Source: Gemmiger sp. (GTDB lineage: Bacteria; Verrucomicrobiota; Kiritimatiellia; RFP12; UBA1067). From it: a DNA stretch of 41,069 nucleotides. The stretch is taken from contig CAVFWY010000002.1 of NCBI GenBank assembly GCA_963626175.1, forward strand, positions 1-41,069. Reading direction: 5' to 3'. Below are positions 33,623 through 39,985 of the stretch, piece by piece. Each line of letters starts with the position of its first letter. Position 1 is the first letter of the stretch. Both the position numbers and the translations under genes were made by a program. The notes under the pieces were generated by a model, which was not told where the DNA came from, made no database searches, and worked only from the letters and a program-made list of their open reading frames with translations.

Positions 33623-36600
33623 ATGATTAAGAAATTGATTGTGGCGGCTTTACTATCCGCATGGGGCGGCTGGATGGGGGTGTTGCGTGCGTATGGCGGC
33701 GACGAGTCCGTGCATCTCGAATGCGAGGCTTTCGAGTCGTGGGGCGGCTGGGTGAACGATACGCAGTTCATGGATCAGATGGGGTCTCCCTATCTGCTTG
33801 CGCATGGGCTGGGACGGCCCGTCGAAAATGCGCGGACGACATTTTCGGTTGGTCGAGAGGGGGATTATTTCGTCACCGCCCGCACGAAGAACTGGACGGC
33901 CCCATGGTCGAAAATCGCGGCGGGACGCTTCCGCATTCTCGTGGACGGCAATTCGCTGCCGAACGAACTTGGCGTGACGGGAAAGGGCGAATGGACGGTC
34001 GAGTCAGCGGGGAAGGTCTCACTCTCGAAGGGGGTGCATACGATTGAATTGCAGGATCTGACCGGATTTGACGGTCGGTGCGATTGGGTTGAAATCAAGA
34101 GCAACCCATCGGCAGTTGTCCCTTGCGCTAAGGCAGAAGTTGCCTATTCGACGAATGATCTTGTGGTTGTCGGGGGCGGTATTGCGGGCATCACAGCGGC
34201 AATTTCGGCGGCACGGCTTGGACTGAATGTGGCACTTGTGCAGGATCGTCCCGTCCTCGGCGGCAACAACTCAAGTGAAGTTCGCGTCCATTTGGGAGGG
34301 TGGCAGAATAAGGCCCCGTATCCGCGTCTCGGCGATATCGTGGCGGAGATTGGTCCGAAGGCGGGCGGAAATGCTCAGCCCGGCGAGGTCTACGAGGATG
34401 ACCGCAAATTGGCCGTCGTGCAGGCCGAAAAGAACATTTCCCTCTACCTGAACACACGGGCCAATGCGGTTGAAATGTCGGAGGATGGGGGTATTGCGTC
34501 CGTTTCGGGCGTGGATACGCGCACGGGAAAGCGGACGGTTTTCTCCGGTCGGTGGTTTGTGGATGCGACGGGAGATGGCACGATTGGCTTTCTCGCCGGG
34601 GCAGACTACCGTATGGGGCGCGAGGCGAAGTCCGAGACGGGCGAGGCGTGGGCTCCCGAAAAGGCGGACGGGATGACGATGGGCGCGAGCGTGCAGTGGT
34701 ACGCCGCCGGAACGAAGGATGGAATCGTTGACCGATTCCCATTCGAGCCGTGGATGATTCGTTTTTCGGACGAGAATGCCTATCTTGGTCTGTGCGGCGA
34801 CTGGTACTGGGAGACGGGATTCGGTCGCGACCAAGTCGCGGAGGCGGAATTCATTCGCGACTACGGGCTGCTCGTGGCGTTTTCCAACTGGGCGTTTGCC
34901 AAGAATTCTTCCCAAAAGCGGGAATATCTTGCGACAAATGAGTTGAAGTGGGTCGCCTACAATGCCGGACGGCGTGAGTCGCGGCGGTTGCTTGGCGATT
35001 ATGTGCTGAGCGAGAATGATTTCGATGCTCGGACGGTTTTCCCGGACGGGACTTGTGCGACGACATGGACGCTTGACTTGCACTGGCCGATGCCTGCGAA
35101 GGAAACGAATTACGACGGTGAGCCGTTTTGCAGCGATTCGCGCAACAAGACCATCTGGCCGATGGCGATTCCCTACCGTTGCTACTACTCGCGCAATGTC
35201 CCCAACCTCTTCATGGCGGGGCGGGATATTTCCGTGACGCACATCGCCCTTGGTACGACGCGCGTGATGCGAACGCACGGCATGATGGGTGAGGTCGTGG
35301 GTATGGCGGCGGCGTTGTGCAAGAAGCACGACTGCCAACCGCGGCGGATTTATGAACGGTATTTGGACGAATTGAAGGATTTGATGAGGAAAGGCGTAGG
35401 GGATGGGCGTGGACACCCTGTCCAGATGTACAACATCCAAACGTCGTTAGATCCTGATTTTGTTCCTTCACAGGCGGCGAATGAGCAGATTTTGACCCGA
35501 AACGGCACTGATGACGGCGAAGGATGCGTCATCTCCCTCGCCGGGGAATGGCGGTTTGCGCTCGGCGAGACGAATGCGCTGACGGGTACGATTCTCCTGC
35601 CGACGACAACGGATATCGCCCGAAAGGGGGATGGAAAGATTGACGGGCAGAGCGTGGAGCGCATCCACCCCCAGTTGATTGGTGCAGAGATGGCGCAGTC
35701 GCTGACGATGCACCCGACGCGCCGTCATCCGTTTGTTGGTGTGGCCCAGTATGAGAGGACAATAGAGATTCCCGAATCGTGGGTGGGGAAGCGTATCACG
35801 CTCTTCCTTGAACGCACGAAGATTGTGCGGGCGTTCTTGGACGGTGATTGCCTCGGCCGGTGCGATACGCTTGCCACGCCAGCCGTCTTTGAACTGCCGC
35901 GCACGGTAAAACCGGGTCGCCATGTCCTCCGTCTGGAGGTGGATAATCGGCTGGATTCTCTGCCCGTTTCGGGTCACCAGGTCTCGGAGGATACGCAAAC
36001 GAACTGGAACGGCGTGATGGGACGCATCGAACTCCACGCCGAAAGTTTGCCGCGTTTCGGACGCATCCGCCTTTTCCCCAAGCCGTCGAATCGGACGGTC
36101 GATGTGGAGGCGGAGGTCATCACCTCGGATGGCGTTTCGACCAACCGCCAGACGATTGCCCTCGCGAAGGATGCCGCGCTCATGAGCGAATTCACCCCCG
36201 TCTTGCATGAGATTGATGTTCGGGTTGGGAATCTGACGCGCAAGATGAAAGTCGGGTTGCGCGAGTTCCGCACGAAAGGGACGCAGTTCACGGTCAATGG
36301 CCGTCCGACGTTCCTGCGCGGACGGCACGATGCGTGCGTGTGGCCGCTCACGGGCGCCGCGCCGATGGATGTTGGGTCGTGGCGGGAGTACTTCCGTACG
36401 CTGAAGGACTACGGACTCAACCACGTGCGTTTCCACTCGTGGTGTCCGCCCGAAGCGGCGTTCGTCGCGGCGGATGAGTTCGGCTTTTACCTTCAGCCCG
36501 AACTGCCGTTCTTTGGCGGTGACTGGACGAAGCCGGAGGTTCGCGACTACGCTCTTGCCGAGGCGCAACGAATACTGGATGCCTACGGAAATCATCCATC

Positions 36601-39600: not shown

Positions 39601-39985
39601 GATGCGGGGCGATGTGCGCAGACTGCTGGAGACGGATGCCTCCATCGTGGAGTTCGTGAAGGCGTTGCCGTGGAATTATGACGAGTCGCGCGTCTTGGAT
39701 GCGGCGATTGCGCGGCATTTGGTTGTGGCGCGGCGGAGGGACGAAAATTGGTATTTGGCGGGAATGACTGGTGAAAAAGCGCATACGACGGAGATAACGT
39801 TCGATTTTCTGCCCGACGGACGGGAGTTCACGCTCACGCTGTGGCGGGATGATGCCGCCTCCGACAGCCATCCACAGGGCTATGTGCGTGAAACGCGGCG
39901 CATCCGCAGGGGCGACCGGCTGGCGATTCCCATGTCCCGTTGCGGCGGCTTCCTTGCCCTGCTAACACCGTCCGTCGGCAAGTGA
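33623..39985 (+). CDS. Triple-fusion secreted enzyme: N-terminal CBM-like domain plus FAD-dependent oxidoreductase, GH2-like hydrolase, and GH97 hydrolase
   Basis: AGGAGG precedes the ATG at 33623; ATG 33599 is an alternative start. The FAD fold VVVGGGIAGITAAISAARLGLNVALVQDRPVLGG is at ~34157. The GH2 part has VGLREFRTKGTQFTVNGRPTFLRGRHD, NHVRFHSWCPPEAAF and FSLANEP at ~36250-36630. The GH97 part starts at ~38095 with SPNGRVACEF...YDGRHAFESELGF, SPWRAVQL, YFQLDWGW, KYHLWLDIHDAQIPDGFERTYPNVMLSEGGGGEE, LPFTRCLSGPFDFTP and ENWYLAGMTGE. The frame is continuous with no stop. Confidence 0.8.
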   Translation: MIKKLIVAALLSAWGGWMGVLRAYGGDESVHLECEAFESWGGWVNDTQFMDQMGSPYLLAHGLGRPVENARTTFSVGREGDYFVTARTKNWTAPWSKIAAGRFRILVDGNSLPNELGVTGKGEWTVESAGKVSLSKGVHTIELQDLTGFDGRCDWVEIKSNPSAVVPCAKAEVAYSTNDLVVVGGGIAGITAAISAARLGLNVALVQDRPVLGGNNSSEVRVHLGGWQNKAPYPRLGDIVAEIGPKAGGNAQPGEVYEDDRKLAVVQAEKNISLYLNTRANAVEMSEDGGIASVSGVDTRTGKRTVFSGRWFVDATGDGTIGFLAGADYRMGREAKSETGEAWAPEKADGMTMGASVQWYAAGTKDGIVDRFPFEPWMIRFSDENAYLGLCGDWYWETGFGRDQVAEAEFIRDYGLLVAFSNWAFAKNSSQKREYLATNELKWVAYNAGRRESRRLLGDYVLSENDFDARTVFPDGTCATTWTLDLHWPMPAKETNYDGEPFCSDSRNKTIWPMAIPYRCYYSRNVPNLFMAGRDISVTHIALGTTRVMRTHGMMGEVVGMAAALCKKHDCQPRRIYERYLDELKDLMRKGVGDGRGHPVQMYNIQTSLDPDFVPSQAANEQILTRNGTDDGEGCVISLAGEWRFALGETNALTGTILLPTTTDIARKGDGKIDGQSVERIHPQLIGAEMAQSLTMHPTRRHPFVGVAQYERTIEIPESWVGKRITLFLERTKIVRAFLDGDCLGRCDTLATPAVFELPRTVKPGRHVLRLEVDNRLDSLPVSGHQVSEDTQTNWNGVMGRIELHAESLPRFGRIRLFPKPSNRTVDVEAEVITSDGVSTNRQTIALAKDAALMSEFTPVLHEIDVRVGNLTRKMKVGLREFRTKGTQFTVNGRPTFLRGRHDACVWPLTGAAPMDVGSWREYFRTLKDYGLNHVRFHSWCPPEAAFVAADEFGFYLQPELPFFGGDWTKPEVRDYALAEAQRILDAYGNHPSFVMFSLANEPTTGGAERMEVIRKLKAYDPRPLYAQGTNADYANPHQYASDDFWCTFRSTAGAKGNVRGSYSHCDLPLGGVQQEGCGTMRDFSPAVAHSSIPLIGHEVGQYQAYPDYSEVEKYTGVLEPLNLRIFRERLKRAGMEESAADFLRASGALQVLNYREDIEMALRTPGFGGFQLLDLQDFPGQGTALVGILNAFMESKGFITPEKWREFCAPTVLLARYPSSTLTEGEAFKADIQVAHYGREDVLTAVLAWRLVNSSGKVLEKGKLPVSVRVGEVATVGSVAANLPSSGKAEKLSLELELVGRGERNAYPLWVYPKPASLPKVKIVHSLEEGERLLDAGETGLCILTREDAPTNAIPGFFAADFWNWPMFKFVCEGHKKPPAPGTLGLLIDSEHPALDGFPTSFHADQQWRNLILHGMNVVLNEAKDTELIVQGIDNVARNHRLGVIWEKRRGKGHLVVSAIDLEACADLPEARALRTALVRYVDKICKSKCITSPNGRVACEFFLRDGVPVARVSYDGRHAFESELGFRRGKLVVQKTSERTVKVAWKPVWGFKSEYPDRYTELIVNLAAPDSPRTDEILTLRCYDEGFAVRAKTDLNVYELGEIRDERTSWRFASGAKAWCISETEGTFPENPYELDALDSTNAWRMPFTVEVSNGCAASIIEVNVRDYPRSFLNVSQGMIRPVFAIGVKEGRGEIVSPWRAVQLAPNAGKLVETAYFIENLNDSCAIADTSWIQPGLSVSDAGNCELVTEQVIEAARAAKACGAKYFQLDWGWYGAEYAWSDNDRATFRAEHPEFANDTTWETNTYANPYSAAKGTVPYHPYWPYDCHRRGVELDLPKIVAELKKLDMGLGLYIHGAVLEANDLDRLFSTYASWGIAALKPGFVSFGSQKATEYMRKLAATAAKYHLWLDIHDAQIPDGFERTYPNVMLSEGGGGEEGNHPARQDVTLPFTRCLSGPFDFTPRLFNPDALKKGTKAHEVAFFLCYPGPTAVMRGDVRRLLETDASIVEFVKALPWNYDESRVLDAAIARHLVVARRRDENWYLAGMTGEKAHTTEITFDFLPDGREFTLTLWRDDAASDSHPQGYVRETRRIRRGDRLAIPMSRCGGFLALLTPSVGK

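Follow-up and report, generated by a model that had tools for sequence, protein, structure and literature searches.

The window analysed in this study was a stretch of 41,069 nucleotides from Gemmiger sp. (GTDB lineage Bacteria; Verrucomicrobiota; Kiritimatiellia; RFP12; UBA1067; assembly GCA_963626175.1, contig CAVFWY010000002.1, positions 1 to 41,069 of the forward strand). Near its downstream end, one gene encodes a Sec-exported protein in which a domain with the fold of carbohydrate-binding module (CBM) families 6 and 35 and a flavin adenine dinucleotide (FAD)-dependent oxidoreductase domain of family PF12831 are followed by a glycoside hydrolase (GH) unit of family GH2 and a non-canonical unit of family GH97. 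The first two domains form a cassette, which is a widespread mobile partner of hydrolases. The features of the gene are given below, with residues numbered in the 2128-codon translation of the open frame (eight are subtracted for numbering from ATG 33623).

33614-33619, forward strand: Shine-Dalgarno sequence AGGAGG, 3 nt 5' of ATG 33623, read in the sequence
33623-33691, forward strand, residues 9-31: Sec-type signal peptide MIKKLIVAALLSAWGGWMGVLRA, read in the sequence, with similar signals in relatives
33704-34108, forward strand, residues 36-170: β-sandwich of CBM6/CBM35 fold (Golvesin_C-like), from the AlphaFold2 (AF2) model and Foldseek
34139-35401, forward strand, residues 181-601: PF12831 FAD-dependent oxidoreductase domain, from Pfam, AF2 and conservation
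35402-35518, forward strand, residues 602-640: linker 1 between FAD domain and GH2, with low AF2 confidence beyond residue ~610
35519-38071, forward strand, residues ~641-1492: GH2 unit of the BT4151/8U01 type, from PDB, NCBIfam and Pfam
36617-36634, forward strand: GH2 acid/base motif LANEPT, aligned with YGNEPAG of 8U01
36911-36931, forward strand: GH2 nucleophile motif GHEVGQY, aligned with SHEIGQW of 8U01
38072-38095, forward strand: junction 2, the 8-residue linker DKICKSKC (AKLGEARR in the 86% orthologue)
38096-39982, forward strand, residues 1500-2128: GH97 N-terminal, catalytic and C-terminal domains, from Pfam and PDB alignments
39260-39280, forward strand: KPGF (LKPGFV) in place of K[IV]DF, from alignment to 3A24
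39356-39373, forward strand: IHD in place of HG or HE, from alignment
39416-39439, forward strand: retained calcium/acid glutamates SEGGGGEE, from alignment

In the open reading frame (ORF) analysis of the window, the forward strand was free of stop codons from 33599 to 39985, and the preferred start at ATG 33623 with the stop at 39985 gives a protein of 2120 amino acids. Orthologous proteins start at an equivalent Met-(I/M/E)-K-K-L, supporting this start. The open frame, the AGGAGG and the orthologue starts thus bore out the sequence-only reading, an earlier annotation made from the letters of the window, in which a single uninterrupted frame of 2120 amino acids had been proposed. The five parts that it had placed in this frame (signal peptide, CBM-like domain, FAD domain, GH2 and GH97) were all recovered in the same order by Pfam, PDB and AF2/Foldseek comparisons, and the motifs that it had quoted (LECEAFESWGGW, DLTGFDGRCDWVEI, VVVGGGIAG, LANEPT, GHEVGQY, RTYPN, SEGGGGEE and PFTRCLSGPFDFTP) were located at the positions given for them. 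Export by the twin-arginine (Tat) pathway was also considered, as the in-frame upstream sequence ..NRRKMIKK.. is Tat-like. It was rejected, because the start indicated by the ribosome-binding site, 33623, lies downstream of the RR and because relatives do not have RR motifs. No twin-arginine motif was present downstream of the true start in the fusion protein, and only 3 of the 120 relatives listed in the protein search had an RR motif in the N-terminus, nearly all of them carrying a Sec or lipoprotein-type signal.

The fusion was found repeatedly in independent data. A separate NCBI assembly contained a contig on which the same neighbours surrounded a 99%-identical protein of 2119 amino acids, and an orthologue with 86% identity (2121 amino acids) was present on two contigs of the European Nucleotide Archive (ENA) with the upstream synteny kept (GH27-CE4, GH2-like and metallophosphoesterase genes, then the fusion). 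Furthermore, the 85% cluster contained 46 members, many of 2116-2118 amino acids, from NCBI, ENA, Logan and JGI, and the synteny of the same-strand gene block was kept on the orthologous contigs L001-L003. A stop or frameshift at the junctions was looked for in the orthologues and none was found, whereas dozens of assemblies carried versions of 2116-2121 amino acids, in agreement with the proposal of a single polypeptide. The junctions had been placed at ~35400-35520 and ~37950-38100, which agrees with the domain boundaries at 35402-35518 and 38072-38095.

The codon alignment of the window with the 86% orthologue contained no indels at either junction. At the second one the linker varied in sequence and was constant in length, and linker 1 was 84% identical with a dN/dS of 0.075. 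The dN/dS values of the modules, determined from the same alignment (dS ~0.6-1.2 across modules), were 0.10 for the CBM-like module, 0.055 for the FAD module, 0.088 for GH2 and 0.128 for GH97. The FAD module, with 94% amino acid identity, was the most constrained part of the protein, and every module is under purifying selection. The triple protein is therefore genuine and conserved, and not an assembly artefact. The possibility of a mis-assembly, or of a recent pseudogene-like read-through of three adjacent genes, draws faint support from the split versions of other cassette-GH pairs described below; with orthologues of 2116-2121 amino acids at 99%, 86% and 85% in many independent assemblies, conserved synteny around the gene, indel-free junctions and purifying selection on all modules, its probability is close to nil. 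Among the matches listed, this protein and its three orthologue clusters (P0001-P0003) were the only ones with the order FAD-GH2-GH97. The triple fusion is thus a clade-restricted variant of a widespread architecture and no singular oddity.

The N-terminal part of the cassette was recognised mainly by its structure. The AF2 model of residues 33-175 had a mean pLDDT of 94.4, and the Foldseek search against the PDB gave TM scores of 0.67-0.73 to the CBM6 of an agarase (2CDP/2CDO), the xanthan-binding MiXBM (7EHG) and CBM35 (2W1W/2W47). With Pfam, this stretch remained below the cut-offs for Golvesin_C (E 0.015, 15.8 bits against 31.6) and CBM_6 (E 0.063, 14 bits against 28.9). Golvesin_C was matched in 11 of 45 more distant cassette relatives, with a best E-value of 1.5e-59. 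The residues conserved in this fold were E41, E43, G49-G50-W51, G62-S63, A68-H69-G70, R160 and D162, as determined in 48-123 cassettes; all of these except G62-S63 were invariant.

The FAD domain was assigned to FAD_oxidored (PF12831) over residues 187-591 with 224.9 bits against a cut-off of 27 (E 3e-66, profile positions 1-411 of 416). The GxGxxG motif is VVVGGGIAG, at 34163-34222, and further motifs of the domain are VQDRPVLGGN, DATGDG, GRRESRRLLGD, WTLDLHWP, IPYRCYYS and MAGRDISVTH..R. The sequence contains the three features of PF12831, namely GxGxxG, an acidic residue ending β-2 and the C-terminal FAD motif. In relatives, GxGxxG, DRPVLGGN, D(A/C)TGDG and AGRDIS..H..G..R were invariant or nearly so. 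In the 48-123 cassettes compared, the conserved residues of the flavin motifs were G192/G197, R217-L220-G221-G222, D322-T324-G325-D326 and A540-G541-R542-S545, and charged residues off the cofactor motifs were conserved as well (E405, E417, R420-D421, K435, R459, R463, D467, D483 and R527). Across hundreds of clusters, RESRR, D483, D493/H495, R527, E405 and R420/D421 were invariant. His231, a candidate residue for covalent flavinylation, was not invariant among cassettes.

The AF2 model of residues 1-644 (pLDDT 90.4, pTM 0.89) suggests that the CBM-fold and FAD domains are held in a fixed arrangement within their cassette of ~570 residues. PDB sequence and profile searches with the cassette matched only a dinucleotide-binding stretch of 40-60 residues. 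By Foldseek, the best matches of the FAD domain were urocanate reductase, flavocytochrome c3, SdhA/FrdA and flavin mono-oxygenases, at TM scores of 0.24-0.30. Judged from the model, the domain has the generic build of a two-domain flavoprotein, and none of the PDB matches is a close relative. Comparison with a viral structure library gave nothing informative for the cassette, the polypeptide contained no CxxCH heme motif, and no characterised member of the cassette family was found by the PDB or literature search.

In the whole-protein search, the matches beyond the three orthologue clusters covered only residues ~36-601 of the query, with 38-62% identity. The same boundaries (residues 36-601) recurred in all 120 listed relatives, in which the cassette was N-terminal, C-terminal, internal or duplicated. 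Two complete CBM+FAD cassettes and no recognisable hydrolase domain were present in P0004, P0005 and P0028 (1210-1661 amino acids). The partners in the 120 proteins were counted from precomputed Pfam matches on the rest of the polypeptide. GH36 was the partner in 40, GH97 in 10 and GH27 in 6, and the other partners were GH2, GH3, GH20, GH39, GH42, GH78-like, GH88, GH95, GH127, GH16, GH116-like and GH140 units, heparinase II/III, β-helix and F5/8 type C lectin domains. In addition, esterases and non-carbohydrate partners were found (SASA, SGNH, M14 and S15 peptidases, and the β-lactamase fold).

The cassette alone was searched against 1.84 billion cluster representatives (clusters at 50% identity). 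It matched 822 clusters at E≤1e-30, 3591 at 1e-10 and 8644 at 1e-3. Among 144 new best representatives, 52 were stand-alone proteins of ≤700 amino acids, 37 had 700-900 and 55 had more than 900. PF12831 was present in all 45 scanned representatives longer than 900 amino acids, and this sample added GH29, GH43, GH129, GH140, F5/8C, FGE-sulfatase, Laminin_G_3 and Calx-beta as partners. With one genome scanned per species, the cassette occurred in at least 587 species genomes of Bacteroidota, Kiritimatiellia, Lentisphaerae, Planctomycetota and Verrucomicrobiota, the last four including many metagenome-assembled genomes (MAGs). Its carriers include Parabacteroides distasonis, P. hominis, Bacteroides heparinolyticus, Coprobacter secundus, Phocaeicola oris and Draconibacterium mangrovi; the nearest cassettes in reference genomes belonged to Kiritimatiellia and rumen MAGs, and single cassette-GH36 clusters had hundreds to thousands of metagenomic members.

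Over the whole range of partners, cassettes kept an identity of 45-60%. The query cassette was 57-62% identical to cassettes with GH127, GH78-like, GH39, GH2 and M14 partners, but its identity to those of other GH97 fusions was only 40-45%. Cassette identity therefore follows lineage and not partner, which indicates that the fusions arose repeatedly and that the cassette is not tuned to its partner. It had been assumed earlier that each of the modules normally occurs as a separate protein. This did not hold for the CBM+FAD cassette, which is very often fused to a hydrolase or encoded directly beside one, and the coupling of this flavoenzyme to hydrolases is thus a common pattern. When the FAD-GH2-GH97 architecture was sought in other genomes, as the sequence-only reading had proposed, the triple fusion was confined to its small clade, whereas cassette-hydrolase coupling proved widespread.

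In many genomes, the cassette was a stand-alone ORF of ~620-650 amino acids on the same strand as an adjoining gene of a partner type. For instance, cassette and GH36 were consecutive separate genes in L015, L043, L044 and L083 and were fused in proteins of 1307-1309 amino acids in L063 and L075. Furthermore, GH20 preceded the cassette in L028 and L076, and the cassette preceded heparinase II/III in L022 and GH3 in L024. The P0031 cluster (90% identity, GH97 plus cassette of Verrucomicrobiota) contained 1279-aa fusions alongside a GH97 of 669 and a cassette of 652 amino acids encoded consecutively on one 73-kb contig (MEI8288201.1/MEI8288202.1); either the two parted very recently, or the assembly with this contig contains a frameshift or a sequencing error. 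That the same pairs occur in fused and split form is evidence of the classical fusion/fission kind that the cassette is functionally linked to exo-acting hydrolases. In a census, by Pfam, of the genes directly flanking stand-alone cassettes, the strand was the same for 43 of 48 upstream neighbours and for 39 of 50 downstream ones. Their families were GH20, GH2, GH36, GH3, SASA, SGNH and other esterases, as well as hybrid two-component regulators, SusD and more PF12831 genes; no recurring cytochrome, Fe-S or flavin-transfer neighbour was found in this census.

The GH2 unit matched PDB entry 8U01 with an E-value of 3.4e-130 (chain residues 84-890). The Pfam TIM-barrel family (Glyco_hydro_2_C) was assigned to residues 892-1034 (2.1e-7, 30.9 bits against a cut-off of 21), and the GH2 sugar-binding domain at residues 646-790 scored 21.6 bits against 28 (2.2e-4), the isolated segment giving 27.3 bits with GH2_N. 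The nearest NCBIfam model over residues 846-1492 was NF049890, an exo-β-1,4-galactosidase, with 604.8 bits. As this score lies far under the equivalog cut-off of 1500 bits, the substrate is not transferable to the GH2 unit. As in GH2 enzymes generally, the glutamates of LANEPT and GHEVGQY are taken to be the catalytic pair. By its sequence, the GH2 unit is exo-β-galactosidase-like with this pair intact. Like 8U01 and NF049890, with which ~800 residues align, it has the NEP and HE(V/I)GQ motifs and the C-terminal domains; it differs from them in its place between two other enzymes and in its score so far below the equivalog cut-off.

For the GH97 unit, all three Pfam domains exceeded their cut-offs: GH97_N at residues 1500-1732 (7.5e-33, 114.4 bits against 25.3), the catalytic domain at 1836-2024 (9e-31, 107.7 bits against 32.5, profile positions 67-275 only) and GH97_C at 2027-2122 (2.9e-23, 82.4 bits against 25). 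The family assignments made from the letters alone, PF12831-type flavoenzyme and GH97, were therefore upheld by the profile searches. The description of a complete GH97 was correct as to its three domains, but the canonical nucleophile and the inverting bases are absent. The inverting GH97 enzymes carry K(T/S)GY, HE and HHET, and the retaining ones (K/M)(I/V)DF and HG (Gloster et al. 2008, PMC2670981). In alignments to 3A24, 2JKA and 8WG0, the retaining signature was not found in the query, in which LKPGFV and IHD stand opposite FKVDFM and LHG of 3A24; in the direct alignment, the nucleophile Asp of BtGH97b (FKVDFMD, 3A24) faces a Gly. The inverting signature was likewise absent, with YIHGAVLE and not HHET (Glu439), IHD and not HE (Glu508), and KPGF and not K(T/S)GY. 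The glutamates of SEGGGGEE align with NE..RGTE of SusB and 8WG0, where Glu526 and Glu532 of SusB serve as calcium/acid glutamates (PMC2670981).

Six GH97 "outliers" with KxG(Y/F) and HD, and with neither base nor nucleophile, have been described (Gloster et al. 2008, PMC2670981). The query shares KxG[YF], HD and the lack of HHET with them, and like them it lies by similarity on the retaining (BtGH97b) side. It was different from the outliers at the calcium ligand Glu194, where they have Gln and the query appears to have Glu (FPENPYE), as read through an indirect alignment to 5HQC. The atypical motifs were kept in all orthologues. Judging from these motifs, the unit is a conserved member of an unexplained GH97 subgroup with neither known catalytic arrangement; a different base may take part in its catalysis, with the Asp of HD as a candidate, or the unit may only bind sugar. 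A link between the cassette and outlier GH97s was considered and rejected, because the other cassette-GH97 fusions (P0025, P0031, P0101 and P0103) are canonical retaining types.

The surroundings of the fusion gene in the window, as seen in Pfam scans, were as follows.

15320-16486, reverse strand: regulator with a Peripla_BP_3 sugar-binding domain and an AraC helix-turn-helix domain, upstream of the block and divergent from it
17208-40857, forward strand: same-strand block of carbohydrate-active enzyme (CAZyme) genes, with the fusion gene near its end

The order of genes in the block is β-helix/DUF1565, GH2-like (1372 amino acids), GH29, GH30, GH27-CE4, GH2-like (1385 amino acids), metallophosphoesterase, the fusion protein and an SGNH esterase. 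These predicted enzymes, fucosidases, galactosidases and esterases among them, suggest a fucosylated, galactosylated and acetylated glycan, and the regulator at 15320-16486 is a candidate handle for the identity of the inducing sugar. At 26104-27954 (forward strand), a GH27 of the α-galactosidase/α-N-acetylgalactosaminidase type (Melibiase_2 and Melibiase_C) is fused to a CE4 polysaccharide deacetylase, an arrangement kept on the orthologous contigs. It recalls, by analogy, a two-step removal of N-acetylgalactosamine, in which the sugar would be deacetylated and then cleaved off. The GH2-like genes at 19391-23509 and 27960-32117 (both forward strand) are the paralogues of 1372 and 1385 amino acids, which are 30% identical over 1335 residues; only the first ~500 residues are like GH2 β-galactosidases, and the remaining ~850 had no Pfam or PDB sequence match. 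The β-helix/DUF1565 ORF (17208-19439) overlaps the start of the first of these by 49 nt, and the true start of that gene probably lies further downstream. The GC content was 0.60-0.68 at 1-15000, a part with housekeeping genes (DprA, HAD, ThiC, an ABC/gliding-type transporter and ExbB/TonB), and 0.49-0.62 in the regulator and CAZyme part at 15000-41069; from this drop, the glycan locus may have been acquired horizontally. The ThiC encoded in the housekeeping part was 84% identical to a protein assigned to a Kiritimatiellae MAG, and the host is taken to be a gut or rumen bacterium of this group. In the GC-rich part, a transglutaminase-like/DUF3857 ORF of 1221 amino acids (3286-6951, forward strand) is overlapped by an ORF of 1170 amino acids at 4414-7926 on the reverse strand, which is probably a by-product of high GC.

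Taken together, the near-constant sequence of the cassette, whatever its partner, suggests that it most likely does one generic job; this constancy extends to the loops of the CBM-like domain and to the FAD-binding motifs. As it is not tuned to its partner, its target would be common to many glycan contexts. In the proposed mechanism, the CBM-like cap would bind a glycan by its terminal sugar and keep this sugar at the flavin, where the FAD would perform a two-electron oxidation or reduction of it. The redox step might prepare or complement the removal of the residue by the attached hydrolases, which in this protein would remove a β-galactoside and an α-linked residue. A weak hint at the sugar comes from the many partners that handle galactose (GH27/36/97, GH2/42 and the galactose-binding F5/8C domains). 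A genuine multi-enzyme whose cassette acts in a redox step on a chain-end sugar is the best explanation overall, and we would give it an even chance of being right. More tentatively, the cassette could represent a large unclassified class of carbohydrate-directed flavoenzymes, in effect a new "auxiliary activity", which would be located in the periplasm or on the surface of glycan degraders, both anaerobic and aerobic. Such flavoenzymes would modify a chain-end sugar and thereby enable many different exo-hydrolases to act, and in this protein the cassette might also supply the chemistry that the nucleophile-less GH97 lacks.

Several observations weigh against a redox step on sugars. No member of the cassette family with a known reaction was found, and the sequence and fold searches of the PDB gave no close relative, so that the proposal of sugar oxidation draws on context alone. 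The substrates of fumarate and urocanate reductases, the nearest fold matches, are unsaturated carboxylates, not sugars. Sec export without Tat would mean that the FAD is acquired outside the cytoplasm, which is uncommon. An electron acceptor or partner is seen neither in the polypeptide, which is free of CxxCH, nor in its neighbourhood, and many of the hosts are strict anaerobes. Moreover, peptidases and β-lactamase-fold proteins among the partners fit a purely carbohydrate-directed reaction less well. The literature search found no work on PF12831-GH fusions, with most subscription journals outside its reach; the earlier remark that the role of this FAD family beside glycosidases is poorly defined stands.

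Some of these points would be explained if the cassette were a non-redox accessory module, that is, a large binding, targeting or oligomerisation domain similar to an oversized CBM, with a purely structural flavin or with another nucleotide in the Rossmann site. The cassette is indeed distributed as a CBM would be, with duplicated copies, partners from many families and no fixed position in the chain, and a true CBM6/35 fold is part of it; Sec export without Tat, the lack of a redox partner in the neighbourhood and the non-carbohydrate hydrolases among the partners fit as well. However, the FAD-binding motifs and the charged residues off these motifs are invariant across hundreds of clusters, and the constraint on the FAD domain, the strongest in the protein, resembles that of active sites more than that of scaffolds. 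We consider such a module unlikely. A periplasmic small-molecule reductase or oxidase, related to fumarate and urocanate reductases and acting on a non-glycan metabolite, would be encoded together with hydrolases only for co-regulation or co-localisation. The best fold matches (urocanate reductase, flavocytochrome c3, SdhA/FrdA) and a conserved Arg cluster that could bind a carboxylate agree with this idea, but the TM scores are low, heme, Fe-S and FMN-binding domains are missing, no electron-transfer neighbour recurs, and a glycan ligand is suggested both by the integrated CBM-fold domain and by the repeated joining to glycosidases. This explanation appears highly improbable.

The sequence-only reading had proposed channelled processing of a single substrate, possibly by an analogue of the 3-keto route, in which the flavoenzyme oxidises a hydroxyl of the sugar that GH2 and GH97 cleave. 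Known 3-keto routes combine GMC flavoenzymes or NAD-dependent Gfo/Idh/MocA enzymes with a xylose-isomerase-like lyase. To our knowledge, PF12831 is not among the oxidoreductase families of these routes, and no Pfam match to GMC, Gfo/Idh/MocA or xylose-isomerase-like lyase families was found in the protein or the scanned window genes. The covalent linkage and co-conservation of the three modules speak for this route, as do the GH97 without canonical nucleophile or base, for which redox help is conceivable, and the xylose-isomerase-like TIM barrels in 2 of 50 downstream neighbours of stand-alone cassettes. On the other hand, the cassette is nearer to those fused with GH127, GH39 and GH78-like units than to GH97-fused ones, and this tracking of lineage argues against a chemistry tailored to the substrate of GH2 and GH97 and against channelling. 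In addition, other cassette-GH97 fusions keep canonical retaining motifs, the GH2 unit retains both catalytic Glu motifs, and no lyase or hydratase gene was present among the scanned window genes. With a PF12831 domain whose nearest folds are fumarate and urocanate reductases, the analogy to 3-keto-glycosides was not supported, and an oxidative-cleavage mechanism has no direct support. The channelled route is, in our judgement, quite unlikely, somewhat more so than an accessory module.

The chief value of this protein is that it points to a very large family of flavoprotein cassettes tied to glycan hydrolases. The cassette is annotated only as "FAD-dependent oxidoreductase" and is abundant, including in culturable gut Bacteroidales such as Parabacteroides distasonis and Bacteroides heparinolyticus. 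If it does act on glycans, the near-purely hydrolytic and lytic models of the breakdown of polysaccharides and host glycans by bacteria of gut, rumen and sea miss a redox step. Direct handles for experiments are offered by the triple fusion and by the pairs that occur fused or split in tractable species. With its GH97 unit, the protein is also a conserved case of the subgroup with neither known catalytic arrangement.

Compared with known flavoproteins, the cassette is a clear profile member of the PF12831 "FAD-dependent oxidoreductase" proteins of Bacteroidota, Kiritimatiellia, Planctomycetota and Verrucomicrobiota; hundreds of proteins, many of which are fused to GH domains, share the CBM-like and FAD domains with it at 45-62% identity. 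The fumarate/urocanate reductase/SdhA superfamily gave the best fold match and has a similar N-terminal βαβ unit and "PV(I/L)GGN" motif, but the TM score reaches only 0.24-0.30, the likeness in sequence is limited to ~40-60 residues, and the heme, Fe-S and FMN domains are missing. Oxidative glycoside-cleavage systems comprise the GMC-type glycoside 3-oxidases and dehydrogenases, Gfo/Idh/MocA enzymes with a lyase, and GH4/GH109. The fusion protein resembles them in having a redox cofactor beside bond cleavage and a periplasmic or surface location, but it differs in family and fold, in the lack of a lyase or hydratase partner and in the hydrolytic Glu pair of the attached GH2. The CBM-like domain shares its β-sandwich fold with CBM6, CBM35, MiXBM and Golvesin_C; it was different from ordinary CBMs, which vary with their ligand, in that its loops were invariant across partners and its scores stayed below the Pfam cut-offs. 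Finally, like multi-catalytic CAZymes with two GHs or a GH and a carbohydrate esterase (for example GH27-CE4), the protein is secreted, combines several catalytic modules with a CBM fold and is encoded in a co-oriented block. Unlike these enzymes, it has one module that is neither hydrolase nor lyase nor esterase but a flavoprotein, and its CBM-fold domain is, in the model (pTM 0.89), structurally part of this flavoprotein and not free-standing.

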